Part shown: one piece after another, positions 18,653 through 59,717 of the stretch
How positions within the stretch are numbered: the stretch's first letter is position 1
How the letters are laid out: the number at the start of each line of letters is the position of its first letter
Assembly: GCA_040902205.1 (NCBI GenBank)
Contig: JBBDXR010000033.1
Coordinates: forward strand, 69,673-133,672
Direction of reading: 5' to 3'
Length of the DNA stretch: 64,000 nt
Source: Anaerolineales bacterium
GTDB lineage: Bacteria; Chloroflexota; Anaerolineae; Anaerolineales; UBA11579
Notes under the pieces: generated by a model
Databases searched by the model: none
What the model was told of the DNA's origin: nothing
The model's input: only the letters and a program-made list of their open reading frames with translations
Position numbers and translations under genes: made by a program

Positions 18653-21600
18653 ATGGCAAAGAAGAAGTCAGCTCCATCCACAGCGACCCCTAAGAAGACC
18701 CGGAAGCCAGCCGCTAAGCCTGCGGCGTTTTCCACGGATTTCCAATCCATCATCGTCCACCTGCAACAATACTGGGCGGATTGGGGCTGCGTGCTCTGGC
18801 AGCCCTACAACGAGAAGGTGGGCGCTGGCACTATGAACCCGGCCACCTTCCTGCGCGTGCTGGGTCCCGAACCGTGGAACGTGGCCTACGTGGAGCCTTC
18901 CGTGCGCCCGGATGACGGCCGCTATGGTGAGAACCCCAATCGCATGCAGCAGCACACCCAGTTCCAGGTGATCCTCAAGCCGGATCCCGGCGATCCGCAG
19001 GAGATCTACCTGCGCTCGCTGCAGGCCATCGGCATTGACATCCGCAAGCACGATATCCGTTTTGTCGAAGACAACTGGGCCTCGCCTGCTCTAGGCGCCT
19101 GGGGCCTGGGCTGGGAAGTGTGGCTAGACGGTTTGGAGATCACCCAATTCACCTACTTCCAGCAGGCCGGCGGCATCACGCTCGACCCCGTTTCCGTAGA
19201 GATCACCTATGGCCTTGACCGCATTGCCATGGCGCTGCAGGGCGTCCAATACGTAGGCGAGCTGCGCTGGGATAAGCAGCGGAACTGGGGTGACCTGCTC
19301 ATCCAAGGCGAGCGCGAACATAGCAAATACTATTTCGAGGTGGCCGACACGGGCCGCCTGCGCCAGATGGCCGAGCTCTACGAGGCCGAGGCCAAGGCCG
19401 CCCTGGAAGCCGGGCTCTTGCTGCCCGCCTACGATTACGTGCTCAAGACCTCGCATGCCTTCAACGTGCTGGATGCGCGCGGCGCAATCGGCGTTACCGA
19501 GCGCCAGGCCTATTTCCGGCGCATGCGCGGCCTCTCGGCCAAAGTCGCCGAAGCCTACGTGGCTGACCGTCAGCGCCAGGAATTCCCCTGGCTGGAGAGC
19601 GCGCCACCTTCCGTCAGTGTAGGGGCGGCTCTAAGACCCGCCCAGTCTTCCTCGAAGAAGATCCAAGGCCCCAAACAAGCGGCCGATTTCCTGCTGGAGA
19701 TCGGCACCGAGGAGCTGCCGCCCAGCGATTTGGAGTCAGCCCGCCAGCAGCTTTCGGCTGCCCTCGGCAGCTTGCTGGCCGATGAACATGTGGACCACGG
19801 CGAGCTCAATGTTACAGGTACGCCGCGCCGTTTAGTAGCGCACATCGCCAAGCTGGCGCCGCGCCAACCCGACCGCGACGAGGTGGTGAAAGGCCCGCCG
19901 GCCGCCCGCGCTTTTGGCGCCGACGGCTCGCCGACCCCGGCGGCCGAAGGCTTTGCCCGCGGCCAAGGGGTGGCGGTCTCCACTCTCAAGGTCGAGGAGA
20001 TCGATGGCGGCAAGTACGTTGTGGCACATAAGCACCAGAAGGGCCGCAGCGCCGGCGAGGTGCTGGCCGCCGAACTGCCCGGCCTGATCGCTTCCATTAA
20101 GTTTGACCAATCCATGCGCTGGAATGCCAGCGGGGAGGCCTTCTCGCGGCCCGTGCGCTGGCTGCTGGCCTTATATGGTGAGTATCTCGTACCCTTCGGC
20201 TATGCCAGCCTGCAAAGCGGCAACGCCAGCCGCGGCCTGCGTTTGTCCAAGGGCGAGTATTTCAAGGTCACATCGCCCAAAGATTACTTTGCCCAGATAA
20301 AGAAGCAAGGCATCCAGCTGGATGTGGATGCGCGCCGTGAGGCCATTCGCCGCCAGGTGGAAAAACTGGCGGCAGCCGCGGGCGGCCGCGTGCCGGACGA
20401 TGCCGACCTGCTGAACGAGGTCACTAATCTTGTCGAGGCTCCTACCGCCCTAATTGGCGAATTCGACGCTTCCTTCCTCGAACTACCCCGCGAGGTGCTG
20501 ATCGCGGTGATGAAAAAGCACCAGCGCTATTTCGCCGTGGAAAAGGACGGCATCTTACTCAACAAGTTCATCGCCGTGGGCAACGGCGACTTCGACGCCA
20601 GGGCGGTCACCGCCGGCAATGCCGATGTGATCCGCGCCCGCTTTGCCGACGCGGCCTACTTCATCAAGCGCGATCGCGAAAGCAAGCTGGCAGATCTTGT
20701 GGATAAGCTGCGCCAGTTGACCTTCCAGAAGGATCTTGGCTCGATGTGGGACAAGACCCAGCGCGTCGCTGCGCTCACCAAAGAGCTGGCCGGCAAACTG
20801 AATTTGAGCGCCCAGGAGCAGCAGATCGCCGAGCGCGCCGCGCAGTTGTGTAAGGCCGACCTGGTTAGCAAAATGGTGGTCGAAATGACCTCGCTGCAGG
20901 GCGTGATGGGCAAGTATTACGCCCTCGATTCCGGGGAGCCGCCCGCAGTGGCCGAGGCCATCTACGAGCATTACCTGCCGCGCTTTGCCGGCGATACAGC
21001 GCCAAAAGGCAAGGCTGGCTTGGTTGTGGGCTTGGCCGATCGCCTGGATACCCTGACCGGCCTGTTCGCCATGGGCCTCGAGCCCACCGGCGCCAAGGAT
21101 CCTTTCGCCCAACGCCGCGCCGCCATCGGCCTGGTGCAGAGCTTGATAGCGGCCGATCTCGATTGCGACCTGCGCACCTGGATCGCAGAAGCCGCCGCGC
21201 TGCACACGGTGCTGGTTAACGATGAAGCCAAGGCAAAAGTGCTGGACTTCATCGTGCAGCGCCAGCGCGCCCTCTTGTTGGAGGGCGGTGCGCGCCATGA
21301 TGTCGCCGATGCGGTGCTGGCGGCTCAAGGCCATAATCCGGCCGCGGCCAAACGGAGGGTAAATGAGCTTTCCAAAACAATCCACGGAACTCTCGCGGTT
21401 ACGCTGGGCCCTGCTACGTTAAAAGCCACGGGAAAGGTGACAGATAAGGCGATTAATAAGCCTCGGCCAACCGATGAACGATGGCAAAAAACTCTTGACG
21501 CCTTCTCCCGCTGCGTGCGCATTACGCGCGACCTGAAAGAAACGTACACAGTGACCGAGGCGGCGTTTGTGGACGAGGGCGAGAAGGCTTTGTTCTCTGC

Positions 21601-21817
21601 CCTGCGGCAAGCGGAGCAGACAACCAGGCAACCAGGTTCCGTCGACGATTTCCTAAATGCATTCACGCCCATGATCCCGGCCATCGCGCGCTTCTTCGAT
21701 GAGGTGTTGGTGATGGCCGAGGACGAGCAACTCAAGCGCAATCGCCTGGGTCTGCTGCAGCGCGTGGCCGCCTTGGCCGATGGTGTGGCGGATTTCTCTA
21801 AGCTCGAAGGATTTTAG
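18653..21817 (+). CDS. glyQS: fused glycine--tRNA ligase alpha+beta subunits
   Basis: 1054-aa ORF. The alpha module ([31 protein letters not shown]..) is joined to the beta module ([12 protein letters not shown]..) by a ~30-aa linker. The N-terminus is Lys-rich ([25 protein letters not shown]). TATAAT at 18638-18643 lies only 9 nt before the ATG. Confidence 0.9.
19618..19643 (+). repeat. repeat family B copy inside the glyQ-glyS linker
   Basis: TGTAGGGGCGGCTCTAAGACCCGCCC, translated in-frame as (S)VGAALRPAQ. Confidence 0.85.
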
Positions 21818-24486: not shown

Positions 24487-25305
24487 CTAGCTGGCAAGCC
24501 ACGTTTGATACAAGGCCAGGTTGCCCAGCTTGCCGTCCGAGAAGAAGCTGTCCACTTGCTGGAAGCCGGCCTTCTGCGCAAGTTCCGCCATCTCCCCTTC
24601 GCTGAAATGGTGCACGTAGCGCAGGCCGCTTCCGCCGCTGCGCCAGTCCAGCAGGAAGTCCCCCTCATCCATAACCGTGGCGCTCAAGCCCACGGTTTCC
24701 CAGGGTTGGATGCGGGTGCGCAGCCGCGGACTGTTCAGGAATTGCCAATTGGAGAGAACGAATCTTCCGCCTGTGTAGGGGCGGGACTCAGACCCGCCCG
24801 TCTTTGCGGTAGCCAGCAGCCCTCGCATTTGGGTAAGGAACTGCAGGCGCAGCGCTCGGCTGGGAATGTGGTGCAGGACGGCAAAGGCAAGCACATAATC
24901 GAAGCGGAGACTGGAGATTGGAGATTGGAGATGCCAATCTGGGCTGATCAGATCCGCTTGGACCCAATGGGCTTCCATATTCCCTGACCTATTGATGTCG
25001 GAAGTTGAACGTTGGACCTTGGACTTGGCTGCTTCCATCAACTCCTCGCTGGAATCTAGGCCCACATACCGCCCGCGGTGACCGCGGCGCTGCAGTTCGG
25101 CGGCCACGCCTCCGTTGCCGCAGCCGAGGTCCAGGATCTCAGCCTGCGCTGGCACCTCCTCCAGCACGCGCAACACCCCCGGCTGCAAGCGCCCGCGGCT
25201 GGCCGAGAACGGCGCGGCCAGGCTTTGATAGAATTGTCTATTCAGGTCGACGAGTCGCTGAGCGATGACGGCATCCACGGCCTGATTATAGGACTTGACC
25301 GTCAT
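24487..25305 (-). CDS. class I SAM-dependent methyltransferase, Trm9-like
   Basis: ATG at 25305. FYQSLAAPFSASRGRLQPGV..ILDLGCGNG, FDYVLAFAVLHHIP and LRYVHHFSEGEMAELAQKAGF parallel yeast Trm9 VYNEIAPHFSQTRYKPWPIV..IDVGCGNGKY, FDFAISIAVVHHW and YRYYHLYREGELAEDCRQAG (from memory). Confidence 0.7.
   Translation of the reverse strand: MTVKSYNQAVDAVIAQRLVDLNRQFYQSLAAPFSASRGRLQPGVLRVLEEVPAQAEILDLGCGNGGVAAELQRRGHRGRYVGLDSSEELMEAAKSKVQRSTSDINRSGNMEAHWVQADLISPDWHLQSPISSLRFDYVLAFAVLHHIPSRALRLQFLTQMRGLLATAKTGGSESRPYTGGRFVLSNWQFLNSPRLRTRIQPWETVGLSATVMDEGDFLLDWRSGGSGLRYVHHFSEGEMAELAQKAGFQQVDSFFSDGKLGNLALYQTWLAS
24774..24799 (+). repeat. repeat family B copy inside the methyltransferase CDS
   Basis: TGTAGGGGCGGGACTCAGACCCGCCC, read on the minus strand as ..KTGGSESRPYT.. 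within the protein. Confidence 0.8.
24913..24932. repeat. heptamer tandem repeat GGAGATT x3 (last copy 6 nt) inside the methyltransferase CDS
   Basis: Read directly from the sequence. It encodes ..LQSPISS.. on the minus strand. Confidence 0.8.
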
Positions 25306-25337
25306 TGCGAGCGAGTTTGGCAAGCGAAGCAATCTCA
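25301..25337 (+). repeat. repeat family A copy (GTCATTGCGAGCGAGTTTGGCAAGCGAAGCAATCTC)
   Basis: It lies in the 49-nt Trm9-like/elp3 divergent spacer. Its GTCAT head supplies the minus-strand ATG at 25305. Confidence 0.75.
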
Positions 25338-25354
25338 CGGCCGGTTCTGCGAAG

Positions 25355-26974
25355 ATGACCTTACTCAAAGACTCAGCCCCGCGCATTCACGCCTGGGAAG
25401 AGGCCAAGCAGGCCACTCCAGAACGCATGCTGCGCGCCCGCGCCGCCCTCCTGGATATCCGCGCCGGCGCCCCGGTCTTCGAAGCCATCAGCCGCCATCC
25501 TCTGTCGGACGGCGGCTTCGTGGGCAAGCAGATCCTGGTGGCAGCCTATCGGGAGCTGGTCGAGAGCGGCGCCTGGATCGAGGATGCGGCCCTCCTGGCC
25601 CGCATCCGTCTCAAGCCCATGCGCACCCTCTCCGGGGTCAGTGTGGTCACCGTGCTCACCAAGCCATACCCGTGCCCGGGCAAATGCGTATTCTGCCCCA
25701 CCGATGTACGCATGCCCAAGAGCTACCTGCCCGACGAACCCGGGGCCATGCGCGCTCTGCAGCACGATTTCGACCCCTACGCCCAGGTGCGCAGCCGCCT
25801 GGATACCCTGGAGGCCCTGGGCCATCCCACCGACAAGATCGAGTTGCTTATCCTGGGCGGCACCTGGTCCTCGTACAAGCGGGACTACCAGGAAGAATTC
25901 ATCCTGCGCATGTTCGAGGCGCTGAATGGAGTACCCAGCGGCAGCCTTGCCGAAGCCCAGCGCTTCAACGAGACCACCCTGCACCGCGCCGTGGGCCTGG
26001 CGGTCGAGACCCGCCCGGACCACGTCAACCCTGATGAATTGGCCTGGCTGCGCTATTTAGGCGTGACCAAAGTGCAGATCGGCGCACAAAGCTTCGACGA
26101 GCATATCCTGGAGCTTAACAAGCGCGGTCACACGCCGGCCGAGACCCGCCAGGCCGCCGACCTGCTGCGCGCCGCCGGCTTCAAGATCGTCCTGCATTGG
26201 ATGCCCAATCTACTGGGCGCCACGCCCGCATCCGACCGCGCCGACTTTGCCAAATTGTGGGACGGCTATTGCCCCGACGAATTAAAGATCTACCCCACGC
26301 AACTTTTGGAGAATGCCGAACTGTATCTTTATTGGCAGCGCGGCGAATACCAGCCTTATTCCACCGAAGAACTCGTAGAGCTGTTGGCCGATATCAAGCC
26401 GACCATCCCCGAATATTGCCGCGTCAACCGCGTCATCCGTGATATTCCCTCCACGAATGTCGTGGAGGGAAATCGGCGCAGCAGCCTGCGCATGGATGTG
26501 CATGAGGTCATGAAGTCCAGGGGTCAGGTTTGCCGTTGCGTTAGGTGCCGGGAGGTCAAAGGGCGAGACATTGATGCGGCGCAATTGGGATTGCGCGATT
26601 TCCCGTACGCAACCCATCATGCCGAGGAACACTTCCTCACCTTCGTCACTCCCGAGGACCAGCTGGCGGGCTTCCTGCGTCTCTCGTTACCTAAGATCGA
26701 CTCCCCGGCCACCGGTCTCCCAGACCTCACCAGGGCGGCCTTGGTGCGCGAAGTTCACGTGTATGGCCAATCACTCGAAGTCGGCGAGGAACAAAGCGGG
26801 GCAGCCCAGCACATCGGCCTGGGCACGCGCCTGTTACTGCGCGCCGAAGAGACCGCCCGCAAGGCGGGCTTTGCGCGCATGGCGGTTATCGCCGCGGTGG
26901 GCACGCGCGGTTACTACGCCGGCCGCGGCTACCAACTGGGGGAGACGTATATGGTGAAAAACCTCAGTGATTAG
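25355..26974 (+). CDS. elp3: Elp3-type radical SAM/GNAT enzyme (tRNA U34 carboxymethylation family)
   Basis: ATG at 25355. Radical-SAM cluster motif CPGKCVFCP (CX3CX2C). C-terminal GNAT QHIGLGTRLLLRAEETARKAGFARMAVIAAVGTRGYYAGRGY. Confidence 0.85.
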   Translation: MTLLKDSAPRIHAWEEAKQATPERMLRARAALLDIRAGAPVFEAISRHPLSDGGFVGKQILVAAYRELVESGAWIEDAALLARIRLKPMRTLSGVSVVTVLTKPYPCPGKCVFCPTDVRMPKSYLPDEPGAMRALQHDFDPYAQVRSRLDTLEALGHPTDKIELLILGGTWSSYKRDYQEEFILRMFEALNGVPSGSLAEAQRFNETTLHRAVGLAVETRPDHVNPDELAWLRYLGVTKVQIGAQSFDEHILELNKRGHTPAETRQAADLLRAAGFKIVLHWMPNLLGATPASDRADFAKLWDGYCPDELKIYPTQLLENAELYLYWQRGEYQPYSTEELVELLADIKPTIPEYCRVNRVIRDIPSTNVVEGNRRSSLRMDVHEVMKSRGQVCRCVRCREVKGRDIDAAQLGLRDFPYATHHAEEHFLTFVTPEDQLAGFLRLSLPKIDSPATGLPDLTRAALVREVHVYGQSLEVGEEQSGAAQHIGLGTRLLLRAEETARKAGFARMAVIAAVGTRGYYAGRGYQLGETYMVKNLSD

Positions 26975-27124: not shown

Positions 27125-27601
27125 TTGATCTCGCAATTCATTGGAAGCAGAGTGCCTAAACGCGATTTCTACTCTCGTCTCGTCTATGCCCGCCGCGGCC
27201 CATTCGGCCGCCTGGCCTACTTGCTGCTGAAAGCGCTCGGCGCCGAAGTGCCGCGCCAGGTGGAGATCGGCGAAGGCTTCACGCTGGTGCATGGCGGCTT
27301 TGGCGTTGTCATCCATCCCAATACGAAAGTCGGCAAGAACGTGAAGATCTACCCCGGCGTTACCTTGGGCCGCGCTGACATCCACCTACCCATCGAGCGA
27401 TCCAAGTTCCAGGGTATTGAGATCGGTGACGAGGTGATCCTATCGCCCGGTTCCAAGGTGTTGTGCAAAGAAGGCGTATTGCGCGTGGGCCGCGGCACCG
27501 TATTGGGCGCTAACGCCGTGCTGCTCGAGTCCACCGGCGAAGGCGAGATCTGGGCCGGCCTGCCCGCGAAGAAGGTGGGATCGCGCCAGGGCTGGCAATG
27601 A
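27125..27601 (+). CDS. hexapeptide-repeat (LbH) acyltransferase, short serine O-acetyltransferase-like
   Basis: 158-aa ORF; the TTG start is uncertain. Left-handed beta-helix repeats IGEGFTLVHGGFGVVIHPNTKVGKNVKIYPGVTLG..IGDEVILSPGSKV. Confidence 0.65.
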   Translation: MISQFIGSRVPKRDFYSRLVYARRGPFGRLAYLLLKALGAEVPRQVEIGEGFTLVHGGFGVVIHPNTKVGKNVKIYPGVTLGRADIHLPIERSKFQGIEIGDEVILSPGSKVLCKEGVLRVGRGTVLGANAVLLESTGEGEIWAGLPAKKVGSRQGWQ

Positions 27602-27653: not shown

Positions 27654-27726
27654 GCCGAGGTAGCTCAGTTGGTAGAGCACGCGACTGAAAATCGCGGTGT
27701 CGCCGGTTCAATTCCGGCCCTCGGCA
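27654..27726 (+). tRNA. tRNA-Phe (GAA)
   Basis: Manual cloverleaf: acceptor GCCGAGG/CCTCGGC, anticodon stem-loop CGCGA-CTGAAAA-TCGCG, T arm GCCGG-TTCAATT-CCGGC. No encoded CCA. Confidence 0.95.
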
Positions 27727-27824
27727 CTTACGCAGCGCCTTCGGCGCCTGCGTTTAGGAGTTGCTCCGGCTTCGCCGGGTAATGCAACCTCCAACTTAGC
27801 TTTAGGTTATAATTTTTGGTACTA

Positions 27825-27896
27825 GCGGGCGTGGCTCAGCGGTAGAGCGTCTCCTTGCCAAGGAGAAGGCCACGGGTTCAAATCCCGTCGCCCGCT
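27825..27896 (+). tRNA. tRNA-Gly (GCC)
   Basis: Acceptor GCGGGCG/CGCCCGC, anticodon stem-loop TCTCC-TTGCCAA-GGAGA, T arm ACGGG-TTCAAAT-CCCGT, discriminator U. Confidence 0.95.
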
Positions 27897-27901
27897 CAAT
27901 A

Positions 27902-27930
27902 AGAACAGGCTCATTGCCTGTTCTTTGTTT
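27902..27930 (+). terminator. hairpin plus T-tract after tRNA-Gly
   Basis: AGAACAGGC-TCATT-GCCTGTTCT followed by TTGTTT. Confidence 0.6.
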
Positions 27931-27986
27931 AAAGCAAAGGGGGTTAATTACCATAACTTTAAGCTCGGTATAATCCCCCTTTGCTA

Positions 27987-28057
27987 GGCGACGTGGCCAA
28001 GTGGTAAGGCAAGGGTCTGCAAAACCCTCACCACGGGTTCGAATCCCGTCGTCGCCT
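27987..28057 (+). tRNA. tRNA-Cys (GCA)
   Basis: Acceptor GGCGACG/CGTCGCC, anticodon stem-loop AGGGT-CTGCAAA-ACCCT, T arm ACGGG-TTCGAAT-CCCGT, discriminator U. Confidence 0.95.
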
Positions 28058-28099
28058 CTCGTAACAGCCCCAAACTCAACGTCGTTCTGTGAATTAGAA

Positions 28100-29924: not shown

Positions 29925-31292
29925 TTATCGAACCAAAACACGTTCGCCGTAGAATTGCTCGCGTAAGCTCGAGACCTGGCGGCGCAGTGTCTCATCCCGC
30001 TCCAGCATTTCACCCACTTTTTGGCAGCCATGCATGACCGTAGTGTGATCGCGGCCGCCCAGAATCTCGCCAATCTGGGGAAGGGATAGCTGGGCTTCTT
30101 CGCGCAACAGGTACATAGCCACCTGGCGGGCCAAAGCCACCTCAGCCGAGCGGTCCCGGGAAAGCAGGCGCTCACGGGAGATACCAAAAGCCTGGCCCAC
30201 GGCTTCGGCCAGCTTTTCGGGTTCCAGGGCTTGCGGCTCGGGGATCAGGTCGGCCAGAGCGCTATCCACCAGGTCCGGGGTGAGCGGCAGGCCGCGCAGG
30301 TAGGCGTAGGCCAGGATGCGGTTGAGGGCCCCTTCCAATTCGCGGATATTGGATTGCATGCGCCGGGCGATCGTTTCCAGCACAGCCGGTTCCACGTCTT
30401 TGCCGAGGCGCTCGGCGTTGCTGCGCAGGATGGCCAGGCGCGTCTCGTAATCGGGGGACTGGATGTCGGCGATGAGGCCCCATTCGAAACGCGAGCGCAG
30501 CCGCTCCTCGAGGGTGACCAGGCCCTTGGGCGAGCGATCCGAGGTGATCACGATCTGCTTGTTCTGCCCGTGCAAGGTATTGAAGGTGTGGAAGAACTCC
30601 TCCTGGGTGGATTCCTTACCGGCAATGAACTGGATGTCGTCGATCAGCAAGACGTCCGTCCGGCGGTATTTGTCGCGGAAGGCCTGGGTGGAATGCGAGC
30701 GGATCGCCTGAATGAGGTCGTTGGTGAATTCCTCGGAGGAAACATAAAGCACGTGCAAGCCGCTTTGCACCGCGGCATTGCCGATGGCGCGCAGCAGGTG
30801 GGTCTTGCCCAGCCCCACGCGCCCATACAGGAAGAGCGGGTTGTAGGCCTTGGCGGGGTTCTCCGCCACGGCCAGCGAAGCGGCGTGTGCCAGCCGGTTG
30901 CTATTGCCAACCAGGAACGTCTCGAAGGTGTAGCGCGGGTTGAGGGAGAAGTTGCTCGTGCCGGCCGCTTGCGAGCCCTCGCCGGGTGTCTCGACTGACT
31001 GGCGTTCGGCCGGGATCTCGGTCAATATTTCGACGGGCTGGGCGGCTTGCCAGACAACAAAACGGACTTCAACGGTGCGATTCATCATGCCGGTAAGCAA
31101 ACGGGTTACCGTGCTCTTCAGCCGGCTATCCAGCCAATCGCGGGCATACGCATTGTTGGCGCCGATGACGAAAGAACCGTCTTCATAAGCGACCAACTCG
31201 GCCTCGCGTACCCAGGTGTCATAGGTGCCTTTGGGCATCTCCACCTGCAGCTGGCCTTGGGCAGCTTCCCAGGCCTGGCTGGCATTCATCAT
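29925..31292 (-). CDS. dnaA: chromosomal replication initiator protein DnaA
   Basis: ATG at 31292 preceded by GGAGGAGG. AAA+ Walker A YGRVGLGKTHLL, LLIDDIQF, and the C-terminal DnaA-box-binding helix SLPQIGEILGGRDHTTVMHG. Confidence 0.95.
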   Translation of the reverse strand: MMNASQAWEAAQGQLQVEMPKGTYDTWVREAELVAYEDGSFVIGANNAYARDWLDSRLKSTVTRLLTGMMNRTVEVRFVVWQAAQPVEILTEIPAERQSVETPGEGSQAAGTSNFSLNPRYTFETFLVGNSNRLAHAASLAVAENPAKAYNPLFLYGRVGLGKTHLLRAIGNAAVQSGLHVLYVSSEEFTNDLIQAIRSHSTQAFRDKYRRTDVLLIDDIQFIAGKESTQEEFFHTFNTLHGQNKQIVITSDRSPKGLVTLEERLRSRFEWGLIADIQSPDYETRLAILRSNAERLGKDVEPAVLETIARRMQSNIRELEGALNRILAYAYLRGLPLTPDLVDSALADLIPEPQALEPEKLAEAVGQAFGISRERLLSRDRSAEVALARQVAMYLLREEAQLSLPQIGEILGGRDHTTVMHGCQKVGEMLERDETLRRQVSSLREQFYGERVLVR

Positions 31293-32095
31293 CGGACCTC
31301 CTCCAATGTTCAGTGTGTGCTCGGACGCTAGATAGGACAGGAGGACGGACCGTCGCCCCTGGCCGACAACCCGGCGTCCTGGGCTATTCAACTAATTCAG
31401 TTTTCGCGTGAGGCGATTGCGATCTGCGCACACCTGCGCTAAGGTCGGGGATTCTAACAGAAGACTCGCTGTGGACCATGCTTTTCCCCTACGCGCACCT
31501 AAAAAAAAGCGATTCTTTAAGCTGCATGTTTGTTAAAGATTTACGCGCAGAATTCTGCGTCAAAGCGGTTATCACTTTCCACCAGGCCTCCCGCCACAGG
31601 TGGGGTGAACCTGATGCGCAAGCCCCAGAAGCATCGATTGGATCATGTCATCGGGGGATTCTGCAGGTCCCGACGGAGGAATCTTAAAAGTCTTTAAGGC
31701 GAATGGAATGCCTTGCACATCACGCGGAGTTGGCGCGATGGGTATCTCGGCTGGATTTTCGATTCGCGTTGCAAAAATGTAAAGATCGCGAAATAAAAGC
31801 AGCTCGCGCGGCTCCAGAAAAGAATTTTTGCGTGGATGCGCGAGACCTTGATGGCCCATTCAGCTTGTCGCTCAATGATTTGGCCGAAACGGACTTCGAG
31901 GGGACGACAAAAGTGCGATTTGGCAAGAAACGAGTGTCGCCGGTCCGTCGAACGCGTGCGGGAGGGGCGAAAGGTTCACCCGTGTTGCATTTCAGGCGCA
32001 CCTGCCGCCAAGTATGTTTTCCCATCTAGGCCTAGATTGCTGGCTGCGCGGGATGAAAATAGGTGGTACAAACGCCTTTGCAAGAGAGGAAGATT
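31293..32095. other. candidate oriC / long regulatory spacer upstream of dnaA
   Basis: 803-nt non-coding stretch, visibly AT-richer (for example AAAAAAAAGCGATTCTTTAAGCTGCATGTTTGTTAAAGATTTAC at 31501-31544). Only degenerate DnaA-box matches: TGTGGACCA at 31470-31478 (7/9) and CGTGGATGC at 31831-31839 (6/9). Confidence 0.4.
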
Positions 32096-37019: not shown

Positions 37020-39056
37020 TTACTGCCTAATTAGCAGCCAGGCGAACAGATATTCGCCATCTGCCTCCTGGTAATAGATGCGAATCGGCGCCACGCGGAT
37101 GGCGGCCAGGCCGCTTGAGGCGATTTGCGCGGGGACCTGCACACGGTGGGTCTCGATACCGGCGGCTTGCCGGCTGGTTAATGTTTGCGAACCCAACTCA
37201 TTCCCATCGGCATCCAGGAAGGACAGCACGAAGGAGTCTCCGGCGCTTAGGCCCAGTTCCATGGCGCTGGCATGCATGGCGGCAGGGAAGGCCACTTGAA
37301 CAGCGCTTCCCCTTCCAGCGAAGGACACGCTGATTTCGACTCTCTCATTGATTGGGAGGGTGTCCAGTATTACGGTTTGCAGGCGCGGAAAACGTAAGCT
37401 GTCCGCAGCGCCCGGCGCCAACTCCTCGAAGCTGCGCGTATTCAGTTCCCAGATCGCCTGCCAGCGCTCGGCGGAAAACAACGGCCCTTGCGTCACCACC
37501 CGGATCTTCTGGTAATACGCGTCCAGCGCGGCATCATCCATGTGCGCCTGCGCCCCCGCTTCGAGCGCCAGGTAATCGGCCGGGATGATGCGCATGAAGT
37601 GCCCGCTGCGCCAATTGGGATCGTAGATGGGTGGCAGGCGCGCCAGCAAAGGGTCCGTGAGCGCCAGGCCGTGCGCTAGGTACACATCCGGCCCGGCGTA
37701 ATAGCCGGTGAAGCCATTGGCGCCCTGCGGCAGATACAGCTTGCCCTCGGCGTCTGCCTGGGCGCGCAGTTCGCGGCCCAGGTCGATCCAGTCGTGCTCG
37801 GCTTCCCAGCGAAAGGCCGTGCCGCGCAACAGCGAACGCACCAAGAAGGCCGCCTGGTTCAGCACGTTGTGCGACGCGTCGGCGTTGAAGGCGTGAAGGT
37901 CCTCGATGCGGATGAAGTTCGTAGTGTAGTACACCATGCGCTCATCCACCACGCCGTTCCAGCGCGCCACGTTGAAGCCCCTGGCATAGAGGAAATAGGG
38001 CGGCGAGCTTGCCAGCAGGCTGACCAGCAGGAGAGCGGGAACGAGCGCCCAGTGTTTCTTGAAGTTCAGCCTTGGCGCCAGGTAGACCATCAGCATGAGG
38101 GCCGCGGCTAAATAGGCTGTGGAAAGGAAACGGCCGCCCATAAAATCCCCGCCGATCTGCAGGGTGTAAAGCAGATACAGCAGGATGCCCGCCGCGATGG
38201 CCAGACCCTTGGCCTGCCGCTGCCAGGCCACCACGCCAATGGCCACGAGGATCACCAACCAGGTGATCGGGTCGTACAACAGGGTGAACCAGAAATAGTT
38301 AAGCCCCGCCCAAATCTCTTCCCCCAGCGGCACATAGTTGTAGATCTTGGCGTAGTACGTGTTCGGAAAGGGGAATCCGTAATAAATAATGGAAAATAGC
38401 TCCCAGGCGACCAGCGGCGCGAACCCAAGGGCGATCTGGCCGGCGGCGCGCCACCTGTCCTTATGCTGCCACCAGACCCAGGCCAGCGCCGGCAGATAAA
38501 ACAGAATCGTGTCCAGGCGGTTCACCGCCGCCAGCGCGGCCACCAGTGAGAGCCACACGAGCTTATTAGGCTGCTCATCCTCACGCAGGAAGAGCAGCAA
38601 GAAAAGGCCCAGCAGCAGATGGCTTAGCGGGTTCTCCAGGCCCGAGGTGGTGTAGTCGATGAAAGATGTTGAAATGCACAGCAGCAGCACCGTGCCTGTG
38701 CCAAGCCAGCGCGAGGCCGCCATCTTGTAGATGATCAGCCAGGCCAGCACCAGCGTCAGGCCGAGGCTGACCAAGATGGTGGTGAGATAGATCTCGCGGG
38801 TGAAGAAATAGAACGCGCTGAGCAGAAAGAGCCACAGCGGATGCGTGTAGCCCTGCACGCGCTCCTGCACATTCCACGTGAGGCCGTAGCCGTTGATGAA
38901 GTTATCGACGGTGCGGAAGGAAAAGTAGGCGTCGTCCGAGAACCAGGCGTGAGAGAGGACCAGCCACGCCACCCAGAGCAACGTGAAACCAATGGCGACA
39001 GCCAGCCAGAACCTGCGCTGGCGGAACCAAGGCTGAGCGCGTTTCGATCTTGCCAT
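37020..39056 (-). CDS. GT-C-fold polytopic membrane glycosyltransferase (arabinofuranosyl/ArnT-like)
   Basis: 678-aa ORF with ~12 N-terminal TM helices. First-loop acidic motif WFSDDAYFSFRTVDNF..G.TWNVQERVQGYTHPLW. Soluble C-terminal ~220 aa. Confidence 0.7.
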   Translation of the reverse strand: MARSKRAQPWFRQRRFWLAVAIGFTLLWVAWLVLSHAWFSDDAYFSFRTVDNFINGYGLTWNVQERVQGYTHPLWLFLLSAFYFFTREIYLTTILVSLGLTLVLAWLIIYKMAASRWLGTGTVLLLCISTSFIDYTTSGLENPLSHLLLGLFLLLFLREDEQPNKLVWLSLVAALAAVNRLDTILFYLPALAWVWWQHKDRWRAAGQIALGFAPLVAWELFSIIYYGFPFPNTYYAKIYNYVPLGEEIWAGLNYFWFTLLYDPITWLVILVAIGVVAWQRQAKGLAIAAGILLYLLYTLQIGGDFMGGRFLSTAYLAAALMLMVYLAPRLNFKKHWALVPALLLVSLLASSPPYFLYARGFNVARWNGVVDERMVYYTTNFIRIEDLHAFNADASHNVLNQAAFLVRSLLRGTAFRWEAEHDWIDLGRELRAQADAEGKLYLPQGANGFTGYYAGPDVYLAHGLALTDPLLARLPPIYDPNWRSGHFMRIIPADYLALEAGAQAHMDDAALDAYYQKIRVVTQGPLFSAERWQAIWELNTRSFEELAPGAADSLRFPRLQTVILDTLPINERVEISVSFAGRGSAVQVAFPAAMHASAMELGLSAGDSFVLSFLDADGNELGSQTLTSRQAAGIETHRVQVPAQIASSGLAAIRVAPIRIYYQEADGEYLFAWLLIRQ

Positions 39057-39070
39057 GCTTGAGGGTTAGT

Positions 39071-41125
39071 TTACTGCGAGTCACAATTGGCGAAGGCGCT
39101 TACCTGCGCGTAGGCTTCCTGTCCCGCGGCTGCGTCAGCCGCGTTGTTGGCAATCGATTGCCATACAGCGCACAGCAGGCCTTCATTGCGGGCGTGCATG
39201 GCGTGGATGCGCTGGCTGGTCTCCACCGCCAGCGGCCAGTCGCCAGTGAAGGCCTGCGCCTCCACCAACGGGAGCCATTCAATGCCGTAGTTGGGGCGCA
39301 GGCCCTGCTGTTCAGCTGCCGCCATCAGGTCCAGCACCTGCGCCCAATCTCCCTGCCAGCGCGCCAGGTCCGCCTTTTCGTAGTAATAGCACCAGCTGTG
39401 TTGCGGCTCCGCGCCGAAAATGTGGGCGGGCGGGTAGCCGTCGCCCTCGGGCACCGCCAGGGCATTGCCTGGATTGGAGTGCGCCACCAGCTCGCGGTTC
39501 TCCACAGGCAGGTAGTCATTATGTACGTCCAGCGGACTAAGCAACCACAGGCAGCCGCCCTCTGGCAGGAAATAAAAGACCAGATCTTCGGGCGAGCCCG
39601 TACTGAAGGTCAGGCCGCGGTAATCAGACTCCAATGGTTCGCCGTTTTGAATGCGGTTCACCGTTTGCGTGCGCGTCAGCTCGAAATTCCACAATCCAAC
39701 GGACAGTTCTTTTCCGGCCGTTGGGTACAAGACATTCAGCGCATTGCCCGTCATGGGGTCGCCCAGATAGGTGGACACCCGGTCGAAGGAGACCAGCGCG
39801 GTGTTCGGCTGCAAAGCCGGCGCCCGCCAGGAAAGCTGCCAGTAGAAATTGCGTTGCGCCTGCCAATCCAGGCGATACTCGTTGGCCGCATGGATGTGGC
39901 TCCCCAGGGCAAACGCCACCAGCAGGCTGACCAGCAGGATGCGCTGTGGCCGGCGCGGCACAAAAAGCACCAGCAGTGAGCCGACCACCAGCGAGGCGCC
40001 CAGCATGCCCACCAGGATGTAACGCAGGTTGTAGTCCCCTTGCGAAATGGTTTCGCCGATCGCCCACACCGGAAACATGCCCAGCAGGAAAGCTGCGAGG
40101 CCCAACGCGATCCCCTGCCGGGCGAACTTCCCGTCATCTGGCCCGGCTCCGGCTCGGGCTCGGCCCCTTGGCCGAGCCCAGGGCATAGCCCACAGGACCA
40201 CGAAGACCAGGCCGCCCGCGGCCAGCGAAATGGCCACGTCGATCAGCCCGAAGCCCGTGGACAGACTGGCGAACATCGGCTGGATCAATTCCGTCCACGC
40301 CTGGAAGAACGTGTATTGCATGTCGTTCAGCATGGTCAGTAGCAACTCGCTCACCGCCGCCAGAGGATCGGCGCGCAGCTCCGAGAGCAGCACCAGCGGA
40401 TACGGTTCCGCCGGCAGCTTGAGCAGGAACAGCCGCCAGATGAGCCAGGCGGCGAAGACCGTTAAATAGGGCGCCCAGATCTTGAGGATCTCTTGGAGCT
40501 CCGGTCGTTTGCGTCGCGCCTGGTTGGCCAGCAGGATCCATAAGTAGACCGGGCGCAGCAATTCCAGGCCGACGAAATATTCCACAGTGAACATGTGGAT
40601 GGCCGCGGTAGCGAGGGCCAGAATGGTGTAAGGGCGCCAGCGTCCCTTTTCCGTGACCGCCCGGCCCATGGCGCCCAGCGAAACCAGATACAAAACCAAC
40701 GCAGCCACGTGCGGGATGAAGATCACCGACGAGCTCTGCACGTAATAGCCCGGATAGATGGCGAACAACAGGCCGATGTACAGGATCTTCTTGGCGTGGT
40801 CCTTCCACAGCGGCTTTAGCGCCCAGGCCGCGGCCACCGCGCTGGCCCAGTAGAGCAGCAGGCTCGCTACTTGCCAGATCCAGGGCGCTGTGCCCAGGCG
40901 GCCCACCAGCCAGTAAGTCCACACCGAGAAGGGACGGTCGTAGGAAAAGTGATTGATCAGTTGGCCGACGCGATTGTTGAACGTGTAGAAGATGGTCGGC
41001 CAGTCATCCCAATAGAAGCCCAGAAAAGGGATAAACAGCCCAAACGCCATGATGCAGATAAATAGGAAGAGACCCGGCCCGACTCGGTTAGCGTTGGCCG
41101 CGGCGAACTTCCGTAGCGATAGCAT
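39071..41125 (-). CDS. GT-C-like polytopic membrane protein (putative glycosyltransferase)
   Basis: 684-aa ORF 14 nt upstream of the previous gene. First-loop motif FYWDDWP, many TM helices, soluble C-terminal ~270 aa. Confidence 0.6.
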   Translation of the reverse strand: MLSLRKFAAANANRVGPGLFLFICIMAFGLFIPFLGFYWDDWPTIFYTFNNRVGQLINHFSYDRPFSVWTYWLVGRLGTAPWIWQVASLLLYWASAVAAAWALKPLWKDHAKKILYIGLLFAIYPGYYVQSSSVIFIPHVAALVLYLVSLGAMGRAVTEKGRWRPYTILALATAAIHMFTVEYFVGLELLRPVYLWILLANQARRKRPELQEILKIWAPYLTVFAAWLIWRLFLLKLPAEPYPLVLLSELRADPLAAVSELLLTMLNDMQYTFFQAWTELIQPMFASLSTGFGLIDVAISLAAGGLVFVVLWAMPWARPRGRARAGAGPDDGKFARQGIALGLAAFLLGMFPVWAIGETISQGDYNLRYILVGMLGASLVVGSLLVLFVPRRPQRILLVSLLVAFALGSHIHAANEYRLDWQAQRNFYWQLSWRAPALQPNTALVSFDRVSTYLGDPMTGNALNVLYPTAGKELSVGLWNFELTRTQTVNRIQNGEPLESDYRGLTFSTGSPEDLVFYFLPEGGCLWLLSPLDVHNDYLPVENRELVAHSNPGNALAVPEGDGYPPAHIFGAEPQHSWCYYYEKADLARWQGDWAQVLDLMAAAEQQGLRPNYGIEWLPLVEAQAFTGDWPLAVETSQRIHAMHARNEGLLCAVWQSIANNAADAAAGQEAYAQVSAFANCDSQ

Positions 41126-41993: not shown

Positions 41994-42093
41994 AACCACT
42001 CCTTGAGATAGGGAGGAGACGGTTTTATTATCCCCCGTTTTACCTGAATGGCAGGCCTTTCCAAGTGCGAGATTCGGTCCTTTGTAGGTTTTC

Positions 42094-42111
42094 AGTCGGG
42101 GCGAGAATTTG
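42094..42111 (-). repeat. partial direct copy of the tRNA-Pro 3' end (att-like)
   Basis: AGTCGGGGCGAGA (42094-42106) is identical to 47153-47165. The next ATTTG equals 47168-47172, so 18 of 20 positions match with a 2-nt deletion. Confidence 0.55.
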
Positions 42112-42317
42112 GCAGCTGTTCACGGGTTATGGACTTCTGCCCACCGTGTTGCCCCAATTCCAACGAGCCCGCGGCACAAGCCGGATCGTCTTCGGCGTTG
42201 TCTTCCTTTTTTTTTTGCTTGACTATGACGGCTTTGTTCTATAAAACGTAAGCCCTTCTGTGGCCAACCGCTAACCCGGAGTTCAAGCGGCCAACGCCGA
42301 AGGATACACAATGAAAC

Positions 42318-42761
42318 TTACTTCACGATCTGCCGGTAAGCCACATATAGATTGGCCAATCGCACCCCTGATGCAGGATCACGGCGGGCAAGCAGCGTAA
42401 TTAGATCATCCTGCTCTGCAAATAAAGCTTGCACCTCTTGCTTTTCTGCCTCTGAGAGAACTGAAGTTTGCTGGTTGTCGATCTCCGCTCGCAGAACCAT
42501 GAAAAAGTCGCTGGTCTCCTGGCGAGCAGACTCGTAATCGCCTCGTTGCGCGTCAATAGCTGCCGAAGCCAGATAACCCTTCATCTCGGCCAGCCTTAAT
42601 TGCTGCCCCAGCTCAGTCAGGCTGCGTGAGGATTCGCGGGCGCTGAGCCACATGGGAACGAAGCCGATCAGGAAGAAAACAGCCGACAGAGTAACGTAAA
42701 GGGTAATGCGTCGCGTGAATGCGCTTGACTTGATTGATTCTATTTGTTCAGTTTGACTCAT
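42318..42761 (-). CDS. hypothetical N-terminally anchored coiled-coil protein
   Basis: 147-aa ORF with TM helix ITLYVTLSAVFFLIGFVPMWL and a helical remainder. Composition is lower in GC. Confidence 0.6.
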   Translation of the reverse strand: MSQTEQIESIKSSAFTRRITLYVTLSAVFFLIGFVPMWLSARESSRSLTELGQQLRLAEMKGYLASAAIDAQRGDYESARQETSDFFMVLRAEIDNQQTSVLSEAEKQEVQALFAEQDDLITLLARRDPASGVRLANLYVAYRQIVK

Positions 42762-43020
42762 ATCTCTCCTTTGAATGGCAAGAACCGTTTGCCAAACTTA
42801 TCAGCCTAATCGATCTGTAATGCGGCGGCACACCGATACTTGGGCTGATCCCCAGGTCCCCAGACATGTGGTCGGCCCCGTATTCACCACGATCGAGCCG
42901 GCCAGGATTGAGTGGCCATCAGCTGCCCCAAGGGAAGGTGAGGTTGCACCTAGCGGGGCGGCCTTAGCCTTCCGGCCCATGCCTAATACGGTTGTCGCCT
43001 CGGCCTATCGCTCCCCGGAC

Positions 43021-43359
43021 TTACCTTTTTTCCGGTTTCAATGCAGCCGATACTCGGTCAAGTTGCTCAACCAGCGCGTCCTGTCCTTGCTGTTTTAGCT
43101 CCATTGCTTGGCCGCTTATGTCGGCCTTGATCTTCCCGGCCCTGGTCCGCACTTGTGCTAGGGCGTCTTCCACCGAGGCACTTGTTTGATCGCGAAGTTC
43201 GATCGCATTCCGTCGGATTTGCTGGCGGGTCTTTTCGCCAGATTGCGGTGCGAAGAACAGCATGGTTACAGCTCCGGCCAGACTCCCCAGCAACAGCCCA
43301 GCTAGAAAGCTAGCTGGATTTCTTGTTTCTATTTCCTCTTCACGGCTGTGTTTTTCCAT
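43021..43359 (-). CDS. YtxH-domain general stress protein
   Basis: ATG at 43359. FLAGLLLGSLAGAVTMLFFAPQSGEKTRQQIR followed by a helical repeat. The 202-aa track ORF upstream part overlaps csbD in another frame and is rejected. Confidence 0.75.
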   Translation of the reverse strand: MEKHSREEEIETRNPASFLAGLLLGSLAGAVTMLFFAPQSGEKTRQQIRRNAIELRDQTSASVEDALAQVRTRAGKIKADISGQAMELKQQGQDALVEQLDRVSAALKPEKR

Positions 43360-43423
43360 TAGTTTTCCTTTACCTAATTGGCGACTTTGTATTGATCGTT
43401 GGCCGTTTTGCCTGAGTCTGACT

Positions 43424-43624
43424 TCACTTTGCCAGCCATTTGTTGATTTCGATTTCGGCCTGAGCCTTGCTGTAACCATAGCGTTGCTGCAGAACCCCCG
43501 CGAGCTCTTCGATCTTTCCGCTAAGTTGGCCGAGGTCATCTTCTGTGATCTTGCCCCACTGCTGGCGTACTCGCCCCTTGAGTTCGTGCCACTTGCCTTG
43601 CATGACGTCTTTATTTGGTTCCAT
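43424..43624 (-). CDS. CsbD-family stress protein
   Basis: 66-aa ORF: QGKWHELKGRVRQQWGKITEDDL..GKIEELAGVLQQRYGYSK. Confidence 0.85.
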   Translation of the reverse strand: MEPNKDVMQGKWHELKGRVRQQWGKITEDDLGQLSGKIEELAGVLQQRYGYSKAQAEIEINKWLAK

Positions 43625-43721
43625 GTCATTCTCTCCTTTGTTCCACCTCGTTTGCGAATTGTGTGGGGCGGAGCGGTTTGGGAGGGACCAAACCGCTCCA
43701 GTATTGATGCATCCGCTCCGA

Positions 43722-43868
43722 TTAGACGATCTTGCGGCCCCGCAGCAGGTTAACTACAACTAGGATCAGCGCCAGCACCAACAGTAGGTGCACCAAACTC
43801 CCGCCAATGCTTCCAACCAGTCCCAACAGCCACAGCACTACGAGTATTACAACAATGGTCCACAACAT
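43722..43868 (-). CDS. lmo0937-family small membrane protein (48 aa)
   Basis: Below the track cutoff; found by hand. Translation: MLWTIVVILVVLWLLGLVGSIGGSLVHLLLVLALILVVVNLLRGRKIV. Confidence 0.6.
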   Translation of the reverse strand: MLWTIVVILVVLWLLGLVGSIGGSLVHLLLVLALILVVVNLLRGRKIV

Positions 43869-43954
43869 ACAGTCTCTCCTTACCAAAAACTTCACGCGGG
43901 TTTCTTTTATTGTCGGGGCGACATAAATTTGACTGATCGTCCCGGTTTATCTGT

Positions 43955-44362
43955 TCAGGGGGTGCGGTTTTCTTGGCTCGAGGTCTTGGTGACGGAAACC
44001 GAGTTGCCTCTAGGCCGGTAGAAGATCACCCAGATGATCCTTTCAACGGCCCAACCGATCAATGCATAGATCGCCATGGCGAAAAAGGATGAAATTTCCA
44101 GGACCATCCCGTTTGCGGCCGGAGTGGCCGTCATCCCTTCGAAGGGGAACAGAAATAGGTTGGTGAAGCCGTAGATGAAGGAGACAATGGGGCTGTCCGG
44201 ATTGGCCGCGATCAACTTGAGCAGGATGCGCAACGCGATCATCGTTTCCAGGATGCCCAAAGCAACCCAGACCAACTGAGTGATTTTGAAGCTGAAGATC
44301 CGTCGTTCCTGATCCGGTTCTCGCTGCGTAGTCTTTACTTCCGAGATTTTATTGTTAGTCAT
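43955..44362 (-). CDS. YggT-family membrane protein
   Basis: 135-aa ORF: LGILETMIALRILLKLIAANPDSPIVSFIYGFTNLFLFPFEG plus a second TM helix. Confidence 0.7.
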   Translation of the reverse strand: MTNNKISEVKTTQREPDQERRIFSFKITQLVWVALGILETMIALRILLKLIAANPDSPIVSFIYGFTNLFLFPFEGMTATPAANGMVLEISSFFAMAIYALIGWAVERIIWVIFYRPRGNSVSVTKTSSQENRTP

Positions 44363-44604
44363 TTGGCCTCTCTTCTGGTTGGCGCGGCAATTTGATCAAC
44401 ACCGCTGTTCGGGATGATGATAGGTCGTTGGCCCTTCGCTGACCATCGGCCTGTAGCTGATTTTTTAGTAGGCCGATAGAGTGATTATTTGTCAGGCTTT
44501 GTCCTACACGCAGGCTGAAGAAGGCCGCTTGAGAGTTCTTTCGCGGCAACCGGACTATATAATGTGAGTGAGGACTTAACCACGCATCACTTAGATTTCC
44601 GGAT

Positions 44605-57297: not shown

Positions 57298-58299
57298 ATG
57301 GCCGTCTTTTCCCGTGAGCTAGGTATCGACCTAGGCACGATGTTCATCCGCATTGTCGAAGGCGGGCAGATCGTGCTGCAGGAACCCACCATTGTCGCCG
57401 TGGACATCAATGAACAGAAGATCGTGGCCGTGGGCGGAGAAGCCCTGGGCATGGTGGGCCGCGTGGCAGAAGAATCCATTGAGGTCATCCGCCCGCTTCA
57501 AAAAGGCGTGGTGGCCTATTACGAACTCACCGAACTATTGCTCGACCATTTGGTGCGCAAGATCGGCGGCTCGATGCGCTTCTTCAAGCCGCGCGTCATG
57601 ATCACCCACCCCTATGGCATTACCAGCGTGGAGCGCCGTGCCGTGCACGAGGCCGCGCTCCAACTTGGCGATGCCCACCTGGTGCCGCAGCCGGTGGCCG
57701 CCGCCCTGGGCATTGACCTGCCCGTCGGCACGCCCACCGGCAACATGGTGGTGTGCATGGGCGGCGGCTGCACCCAGGCGGCCGTGATCGCCATGAATGA
57801 CGTAGTCTCCGGTGAAACTTTGCGCGTGGGCGGCTTTGACCTGGACGAGGCCATAGCCGGCTATGTGCGCCGCAAATACGGTTTGCATATCGGCCAACGC
57901 ACAGCAGAGATGGTGAAGCTGCGCGTGGGCGCCGCCGTGCCGCAGGATGAGGACCAGAGCGTGGAGTTGCAGGGCCAGGACCAGGTGAGCGGCTTGCCGC
58001 GCCCCCTGACCCTGACGACCTCCGAAGTCGTGGAAGCCGTGCAGCCCACGCTGGACGAGGTATTCGAAATGATCCGCCGCGTGCTGGAGAAGACCCCTCC
58101 CGAGCTGGCCTCCGATATTATCGATCGCGGTGTGGCGTTGTGCGGCGGCACTGCACTGCTGCGCGGCATGGACCGCCTGATGACGCAGAAGCTGGGCGTG
58201 CCCACCTATCTGGTGGACGATCCTGTGAATGTGGTGGCCCTGGGAGCCTTGCAAGGGCTGGACCTGGCCCAGGTATTGCAAAGGGTCAGCAGACAATAG
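57298..58299 (+). CDS. mreB: rod-shape-determining actin homologue MreB
   Basis: 333-aa ORF. Motifs: LGIDLGT, EPTIVAV, MVVCMGGGCTQ, GVALCGGTALLRGMD. Confidence 0.9.
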   Translation: MAVFSRELGIDLGTMFIRIVEGGQIVLQEPTIVAVDINEQKIVAVGGEALGMVGRVAEESIEVIRPLQKGVVAYYELTELLLDHLVRKIGGSMRFFKPRVMITHPYGITSVERRAVHEAALQLGDAHLVPQPVAAALGIDLPVGTPTGNMVVCMGGGCTQAAVIAMNDVVSGETLRVGGFDLDEAIAGYVRRKYGLHIGQRTAEMVKLRVGAAVPQDEDQSVELQGQDQVSGLPRPLTLTTSEVVEAVQPTLDEVFEMIRRVLEKTPPELASDIIDRGVALCGGTALLRGMDRLMTQKLGVPTYLVDDPVNVVALGALQGLDLAQVLQRVSRQ

Positions 58300-58370
58300 G
58301 GGTTCACCAGTACAATCATCTAGGGGGCAAGTACGCGTATCTATCCAGTTTCGTGGTAATTATATAGTCT

Positions 58371-59693: not shown

Positions 59694-59717
59694 GCTTTGG
59701 ATGCATGTTGGAGATGA

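Follow-up and report, generated by a model that had tools for sequence, protein, structure and literature searches.

A head-to-head Elp3 and Trm9-like methyltransferase gene pair in bacteria, a probable module for wobble-uridine modification

The closest described counterparts of the locus considered here are the eukaryotic Elongator complex acting with Trm9-Trm112 (yeast) or ALKBH8 on the wobble uridine of tRNA (U34), and the archaeal pathway built on a stand-alone Elp3 and a Trm9 homologue. The locus lies in a 64-kb stretch of DNA (64,000 nucleotides; "the window" throughout) from an Anaerolineales (Chloroflexota) bacterium and consists of two divergent genes, one for Elp3 and one for a Trm9-like class I S-adenosylmethionine (SAM) methyltransferase. 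Judged from sequence comparison, the two genes probably form a self-contained two-step module for 5-substituted wobble uridine (xm5U34), leading from 5-carboxymethyluridine (cm5U) to 5-methoxycarbonylmethyluridine (mcm5U). The pair is thus predicted to use the same two catalytic families as the eukaryotic pathway, and in the same order; it differs in lacking the Elp1, Elp2, Elp4, Elp5 and Elp6 subunits and an adjacent Trm112, and in that its genes are physically paired.

The archaeal systems resemble the window pair in having a stand-alone Elp3, a Trm9 homologue and clustering of the two genes. In Sulfolobus solfataricus the Elp3 and Trm9 genes form a cluster (PMC2584109); in Haloferax volcanii, HvoTrm9-Trm112 makes mcm5U, and Trm112 is needed in vivo (PMC6144793). 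Archaeal Trm9 has been reported only in Sulfolobales and Halobacteriales (PMC5372719). The differences are that the host of the window pair is bacterial, and that the bacterial genes stand head to head across a gap of tens of nucleotides. An earlier sequence-only reading of the window, made without database searches, knew of no described bacterial Elp3-Trm9 pair, and the literature searched agrees with it, yielding archaeal gene clustering only (the 2016 paper on DmcElp3, the Elp3 of Dehalococcoides mccartyi, fell outside the coverage). What is new here is a bacterial member of the established Elp3-Trm9 pathway.

Bacteria also have xm5U34 routes of their own: MnmE/MnmG and, in Gram-positive bacteria, MnmL (YtqA)/MnmM (YtqB). 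Both build C5 side chains on the wobble uridine, and in the latter, too, a radical-SAM protein related to Elp3 is combined with a SAM methyltransferase; MnmL, however, lacks the KAT domain that the window Elp3 has, and the predicted product of the window pair is an ester (mcm5U) rather than an aminomethyl derivative. A further likeness is CmoM (SmtA), a class I methyltransferase that esterifies a U34 side-chain carboxylate (uridine 5-oxyacetic acid, cmo5U, to its methyl ester, mcmo5U), with CmoA and CmoB, not Elp3, as its partners. Published accounts either treat DmcElp3 as a rare stand-alone Elp3 or remark that "numerous bacteria" possess Elp3 only, and it has been stated in print that nothing is known about bacterial Trm112.

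The two open reading frames (ORFs) were present in the window as first described, and each motif that had been quoted for them was located in the two proteins. The locus is laid out as follows.

25355..26974, plus strand: Elp3 gene, 539 amino acids (aa), with radical-SAM, Radical_SAM_C and C-terminal KAT/GNAT domains
24487..25305, minus strand: Trm9-like class I SAM methyltransferase gene; 263 aa with the GTG at 25278 as start (more likely), 272 aa with the ATG at 25305
25279..25354, no strand: divergent intergenic region; its length is 76 nucleotides (nt) if the GTG at 25278 is the start and 49 nt (25306-25354) if the ATG at 25305 is

The 49-nt spacing given in the earlier reading holds with ATG starts for both genes. 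The more likely start of the methyltransferase is nevertheless the GTG at 25278, judging from the N-termini of 32 homologues and from the database gene call (P0001, 263 aa), and this widens the gap to 76 nt; 25279-25305 would be the first methyltransferase codons only if the ATG at 25305 were used. The Elp3 ATG at 25355 is backed by tblastn alignments to the closest relatives (L001, L002) that begin at residue 1.

That the product of 25355..26974 is a bona fide Elp3 is not in doubt from its sequence. It scores 461.7 bits on the NCBIfam model TIGR01211 (ELP3; cut-off 350) over aa 76-537, and Pfam finds the radical-SAM family PF04055 (53.7 bits) and Radical_SAM_C, PF16199 (69.7 bits). The best solved relative is DmcElp3 (Protein Data Bank, PDB, entry 5l7j; E 3.4e-118, 398 bits, aa 87-537), with which three catalytic or structural blocks align.

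25673..25696, plus strand: radical-SAM Fe-S cysteine motif CPGKCVFC, aa 107-114, aligned with CPGKCIYC of DmcElp3
26531..26554, plus strand: cysteine cluster CRCVRCRE of the interdomain linker (Zn site), aligned with CRCIRCRE of DmcElp3
26807..26932, plus strand: KAT acetyl-CoA-binding block QHIGLGTRLL ... GTRGYYAGRGY, aligned with QHRGLGRKLL ... GAREYYRSLGY of DmcElp3

The role of the linker cysteines as a Zn site is described for bacterial and archaeal Elp3 in PMC6367351. In the KAT block, QHIGLGTRLL occupies aa 485-494 and GTRGYYAGRGY aa 516-526, and the C-terminal domain aligns end to end with the KAT domain of DmcElp3, including QHxGLG and the terminal GxRxYY...GY. The full Elp3 architecture read from the sequence is therefore confirmed by a model score above cut-off and by Fe-S, Zn and acetyl-CoA motifs in alignment with DmcElp3. 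Some 85 N-terminal residues of the window Elp3 have no counterpart in DmcElp3; archaeal Elp3 also has an N-terminal extension, which is important for tRNA binding (PMC6367351). MnmL/YtqA was tried as an alternative identity and rejected (TIGR01212, 50.9 bits against a cut-off of 180).

An Elp3 could in principle serve as a protein acetyltransferase or in another radical-SAM role, which would leave the pair unrelated to U34. The history of Elp3 includes a histone or protein acetyltransferase proposal, and none of the Pfam GNAT models reaches the E 0.01 threshold on the window protein. This account is nonetheless hardly credible: acetyl-CoA hydrolysis by Elp3 from Bacteria, Archaea and eukaryotes requires tRNA as a trigger (PMC6367351), archaeal Elp3 forms cm5U in vitro (as cited in PMC5372719), and all motifs of the window protein are in register with DmcElp3.

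The methyltransferase calls for a longer argument, and we begin with its constancy beside Elp3. The profile of the Anaerolineae methyltransferase family (A1) was scanned against one genome per species of the Genome Taxonomy Database (GTDB), and Elp3 was sought at each locus by tblastn with the window Elp3. This gave 80 loci, 69 of which carry Elp3; in 6 of the 11 others the methyltransferase lies at a contig edge, so that 69 of the 74 evaluable loci are paired. Elp3 is directly upstream and on the opposite strand in 68 of the 69 (in the exception, L071, it is 5.5 kb off and on the same strand). The paired loci span Chloroflexota, many Patescibacteria lineages, Fermentibacteria, Myxococcota and Acidobacteriota, and one DPANN archaeal locus, from a Pacearchaeota metagenome-assembled genome (MAG; L078), has the same pair. 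When the ORFs of the loci were clustered all against all, the methyltransferase and Elp3 were the sole two families common to them. No conserved third gene (Trm112, thiolase or amidase) emerged from this neighbour clustering, in which no other real gene occurs in more than about 10 loci and the bigger of the leftover clusters consist of shadow ORFs that overlap Elp3.

The reverse scan started from Elp3. The DmcElp3 sequence, rebuilt from the 5l7j alignment, was run against the metagenomes of the Joint Genome Institute (JGI) and found 549 relatives, a number that does not bear out the earlier statement that Elp3 is rare in Bacteria. Of this type, 59 loci were evaluable, having 900 nt or more of sequence upstream of Elp3; in 46 of these a Trm9-like methyltransferase is encoded there on the opposite strand, within about 400 nt in 34 of them. 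Pairwise distances of the two proteins over 105 loci are tightly correlated (Mantel r = 0.969; none of 999 permutations reaches that value), which speaks for co-inheritance and, since the species phylogeny is partly shared, is not proof of co-transfer. Adjacency in other Elp3-bearing bacteria, put forward earlier as a point on which the idea could fail, holds in both directions. The pairing of Elp3 with this methyltransferase family is far beyond chance and, together with the correlated distances, fits a functional link to Elp3; the best explanation is that the head-to-head arrangement is maintained and the genes are inherited as a unit.

The MAGs behind four paired loci (L017, L060, L071 and L074) bear the labels Nitrosomonadaceae, Pseudomonadales or Gammaproteobacteria. 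The L017 sequence is Anaerolineae-like, its Elp3 being 62% identical to that of the window; such odd labels could reflect mis-binning or real transfer.

The same arrangement is found beside the crystallised enzyme. In the D. mccartyi locus of our survey (L081), an Elp3 100% identical to crystallised DmcElp3 starts at 4995 on the plus strand, and a divergent, Trm9-like methyltransferase of 224 aa lies at 4277-4951 on the minus strand, 43 nt from the Elp3 start. This neighbour belongs to a subclade other than that of the window protein, with 52 bits on the window-family hidden Markov model (HMM) and 50 on that of Trm9; entries of its cluster from D. mccartyi are named "class I SAM-dependent methyltransferase" or "ubiquinone/menaquinone biosynthesis C-methylase UbiE" in databases. 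DmcElp3 (PDB 5l7j, 5l7l, 6ia6) is the nearest solved relative of the window Elp3 and shares with it a divergent Trm9-like neighbour; it differs in its shorter N-terminus and in the subclade of its partner. In the literature searched on DmcElp3 as a structural model for Elongator, we found no discussion of the neighbouring gene.

The link of this family to Trm9 was examined by profile comparison. Fragments of yeast Trm9 given in the sequence-only reading agree with the real protein (ScTrm9; P0121). Aligned by hhalign, the A1 profile and a profile of 28 yeast Trm9 proteins (A2) match with 98.9% probability (E 2.6e-17, 199 columns), and the alignment passes through the motifs that distinguish Trm9: N-terminal Y..IA..FS.TR, VHH,.PW and C-terminal RY.H....EL; the Trm9 CW.. 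motif falls on SNWQF of the Anaerolineae family. Two ceilings serve to read the HMM scores: 35 bits for the yeast Trm9 HMM (the highest score of any PDB protein other than Trm9) and about 50 bits for generic methyltransferases in the PDB on the A1 HMM. With the Trm9 HMM, Elp3 partners of the Patescibacteria type lie at 62-107 bits and those of the Dehalococcoidia type at 48-77 bits. On the A1 HMM, the more distant members of the A1 scan (mostly Patescibacteria) lie at 100-173 bits. Over all Elp3-linked intermediates the ranges are 48-107 bits on the Trm9 HMM and 38-173 on the window-family HMM, and an HMM of the Patescibacteria type gives the window methyltransferase 180.8 bits.

On these scores, the bridge between the window family and Trm9 is made up of Elp3-adjacent relatives in Patescibacteria and Dehalococcoidia. 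Trm9 membership of the window protein rests on this transitive homology, its direct score lying at the generic level; by sequence, the comparisons show a homology to Trm9 that is remote but controlled, and the window copy falls in the subclade most diverged from Trm9. Many homologues carry the JGI annotation "tRNA (uracil-5-)-methyltransferase TRM9". A profile search of 1.84 billion representatives returned 1218 clusters of the family (50% identity) at E <= 1e-30; the next family out was not reached in that search, the top 150 all being in-family (at least 200 bits).

The residues known to matter in yeast Trm9 can be followed into the window protein at the motifs below.

25195..25233, minus strand: N-terminal Trm9-type motif FYQSLAAPFSASR, aa 25-37; Y26, F33, S34 and R37 correspond to ScTrm9 Y18, F25, S26 and R29
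25111..25134, minus strand: SAM-binding motif I LDLGCGNG, aa 58-65, from sequence and alignment
24862..24888, minus strand: AFAVLHHIP, aa 140-148; the catalytic histidine pair of ScTrm9 (H115, H116) is matched by H145 and H146
24604..24624, minus strand: LRYVHHF, aa 228-234; R229, Y230 and H232 correspond to ScTrm9 R241, Y242 and H244, and V231 replaces the essential Y243

In ScTrm9, R29, D72, H116, W145, W168, R241, Y243 and N271 are needed for activity (Létoquart et al., PMC4678810), and the same authors proposed that R29, H116, R241 and Y18 hold the cm5U carboxylate; W145 is proposed to stack on U34, and N271 to read the uracil ring at O2/N3. Six of the eight essential residues are invariant in the Anaerolineae clade, as R37, D84, H146, W187, W202 and R229. 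In a joint alignment, equivalents of Y18, R29, D72, H116, W145, W168, R241 and H244 occur in 40 of 40 members of the clade, and that of H115 in 39. The window methyltransferase shares with yeast Trm9 the N-terminal FSxTR, the HH pair, W145, W168 and RYxH; it lacks the yeast insertion and equivalents of Y243 and N271.

Several results weigh against reading the pair as an mcm5U module. A single-sequence phmmer search of the PDB finds Trm9 (5cm2) insignificant (E 0.54), although that search is uninformative; when the family profile is run against the PDB by hmmsearch, 5cm2 comes in about 19th place at 38 bits (E 1e-8), with an alignment covering nearly the whole chain, and CmoM (8joz) is below it at 30 bits. 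With an AlphaFold2 model (pLDDT 90.8), Foldseek places an uncharacterised Methanosarcina methyltransferase (3sm3) first and METTL6 next among PDB structures, and 5cm2 falls outside the top 50; it did not discriminate among class I methyltransferases. The yeast Trm9 HMM gives the window protein 33.5 bits, within the generic methyltransferase range, and direct similarity (about 28% over 150 residues) therefore does not establish Trm9 identity. Two of the eight essential residues are lost in the Anaerolineae clade (Y243 to V/A/C/I, N271 to G/S/A), as is W33 (to Q). Thirteen of the 59 evaluable Dehalococcoidia-type Elp3 loci have no methyltransferase within 5 kb, and Trm112 is needed by eukaryotic and archaeal Trm9, yet neighbour clustering and a low-sensitivity phmmer search show no Trm112 gene adjacent in any locus. 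We know of no report of mcm5U in Bacteria.

The first of these results bear on whether the methyltransferase might be an unrelated enzyme, UbiE-like for instance, that methylates small molecules or proteins and stands beside Elp3 by inherited synteny. Its Pfam matches are to generic methyltransferase families only, the D. mccartyi copy is named UbiE in some sources, and both sequence and fold searches of the PDB put assorted small-molecule methyltransferases at the top. We nevertheless regard such an origin as quite improbable. UbiE/MenG was rejected as an identity (NF001244, 33.3 bits against a cut-off of 216; TIGR01934, 28.8 against 158), as was CmoM (NF008264, 20.5 against 366); no NCBIfam model comes near its cut-off on the window protein (UbiE, CmoM, BioC and Tam included), and Pfam and NCBIfam scans gave no MnmM or MnmC signal. 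The pair moreover persists across phyla while all other neighbours change, its divergent orientation is all but constant, and the N- and C-terminal motifs specific to Trm9 are conserved together with catalytic residues. A grouping with small-molecule methyltransferases, which the sequence-only reading had named as fatal to its proposal, is not what the NCBIfam scores, the profile match, the bridging scores and the invariant residues point to.

The lost residues bear on another question, whether a methyltransferase coupled to Elp3 may have a chemistry other than that of Trm9 and yield an undescribed nucleoside; it might act on another Elp3-derived side chain, on a thiolated or otherwise pre-modified U34, or on another atom or nucleotide. 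This is the main rival to the module reading. In its favor are the loss in the Anaerolineales clade of the equivalents of N271, the proposed reader of uracil, and of Y243 and W33, and the presence there of an invariant DxGDYLLDWR block and of SNWQF and SDG motifs peculiar to the clade; the region of yeast Trm9 that matches DxGDYLLDWR is a long non-homologous insertion. The weak direct similarity to Trm9 and the lack of a Foldseek preference for it point the same way. Yet the proposed carboxylate holders and the U34-stacking tryptophan are invariant, and the clade grades into Patescibacteria-type proteins that keep N271 (in 30 of 31 partners) and W33 and reach 107 bits on the Trm9 HMM. We consider a departure from Trm9 chemistry unlikely, and take the pair to be probably a cm5U-to-mcm5U module.

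Some Elp3-linked methyltransferases carry additional domains. In one subclade (P0347, P0351, P0380, P0388, P0403) there is an extra N-terminal domain of about 65-75 aa with the pattern VEIRF..W..A.V....G.WV.T..GR.WFVTN..IR and no Pfam match, which by its sequence might be a small beta-barrel RNA-binding add-on. P0273 has a C-terminal GNAT acetyltransferase domain, and P0260 is interrupted by a DUF559 endonuclease-like domain.

In the pathway proposed here, Elp3 alone, without other Elongator subunits, would carboxymethylate C5 of U34 to give cm5U, using its radical-SAM and acetyl-CoA-binding domains. The methyltransferase, as a diverged bacterial branch of Trm9, would then methyl-esterify the cm5U carboxylate with SAM to give mcm5U, probably without an adjacent Trm112 partner. 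We infer this chemistry (cm5U, then mcm5U), and likewise the tRNA targets, the co-regulation of the genes and independence from Trm112. The two-gene xm5U34 pathway proposed in the sequence-only reading is supported in silico by Elp3 identity, Trm9 homology, conserved residues and pairing. The "eukaryotic/archaeal" mcm5U pathway probably runs in bacteria too.

Independence from Trm112 is suggested solely by the absence of a linked gene. That no Trm112-like ORF is visible nearby was noted from the start, and low-sensitivity phmmer searches (with E. coli YcaR as query) agree in finding none in the window or in 160 loci, as does neighbour clustering; long members of the methyltransferase family contain no fused Trm112 either.

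A shared control region is suggested by the strict head-to-head layout, in which tens of nucleotides separate the genes, and the intergenic region presumably holds both promoters; similarly short gaps occur in other loci, for instance that of D. mccartyi. Scans of the locus for sigma-70 promoter consensus sequences and terminators found nothing. A perfect TATAAT lies at 25285-25290 on the minus strand, 6 nt upstream of the likely GTG start, with no -35 partner at normal spacing; this would fit a leaderless methyltransferase mRNA.

The surroundings of the pair are ordinary chromosome. Base composition is even over the locus, the nearest homologues are in Anaerolineales MAGs, and one flank carries a fused GlyQS, RecO, a PadR regulator and a GyrI-like protein. 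On the opposite flank are a hexapeptide acetyltransferase, tRNA-Phe/Gly/Cys, RNase H and DnaA. Neither MnmE nor MnmG turned up among the window's large ORFs, which is uninformative on the whole genome, and the literature search found no mention of their absence in Chloroflexi.

Further features of the window may be recorded. A cluster of tRNA-Phe(GAA), tRNA-Gly(GCC) and tRNA-Cys(GCA) lies at 27654-28058 (plus strand), about 700 nt 3' of Elp3, and is directly preceded by the hexapeptide acetyltransferase gene (27125-27601); none of the three tRNAs has U34. The glycyl-tRNA synthetase is a single 1054-aa ORF (18653-21817, plus strand) in which alpha and beta subunits are fused (PF02091 plus PF02092). 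Two adjoining ORFs at 37020-39056 and 39071-41125, both on the minus strand (678 and 684 aa), match no Pfam family at E <= 1e-5. Patches of lower G+C content occur at 42001-46000 (0.53-0.55) and 58001-60000 (0.50), compared with about 0.61 elsewhere in the window, and a 440-aa ORF in the latter patch (58371-59693) matches no Pfam family. The dnaA gene lies at 29925-31391 (minus strand); DnaA boxes (TTATCCACA, at most one mismatch) are neither enriched nor clustered near it, with 8 in the window and 5.8 expected.

The pair of Elp3 and a Trm9-like methyltransferase recurs in more than 100 bacterial loci, that of the crystallised Dehalococcoides Elp3 among them. The literature searched does not address the purpose of bacterial Elp3 or its final nucleoside, and a conserved Trm9-type partner reduces the matter of its product to a simple two-gene question. 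A bolder and tentative extension, drawn from the same comparisons, would see in the pair a portable, Trm112-free xm5U34 pathway that brings mcm5U-type nucleosides to Bacteria and may replace MnmE/MnmG in Anaerolineae, Dehalococcoidia and much of Patescibacteria; the Anaerolineales subclade, given its altered uracil-reading residue and its own DYLLDWR block, may even yield an uncatalogued derivative.

The result will not startle specialists, but a large family of anonymous methyltransferases gets a new label. If the module reading is true, it would be established that enzymes of the Trm9 type can act without Trm112, and thousands of "class I SAM-dependent methyltransferase" entries from Chloroflexota and Patescibacteria would be open to re-annotation. 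It would also show a route of wobble-uridine modification in reduced genomes such as those of Patescibacteria.

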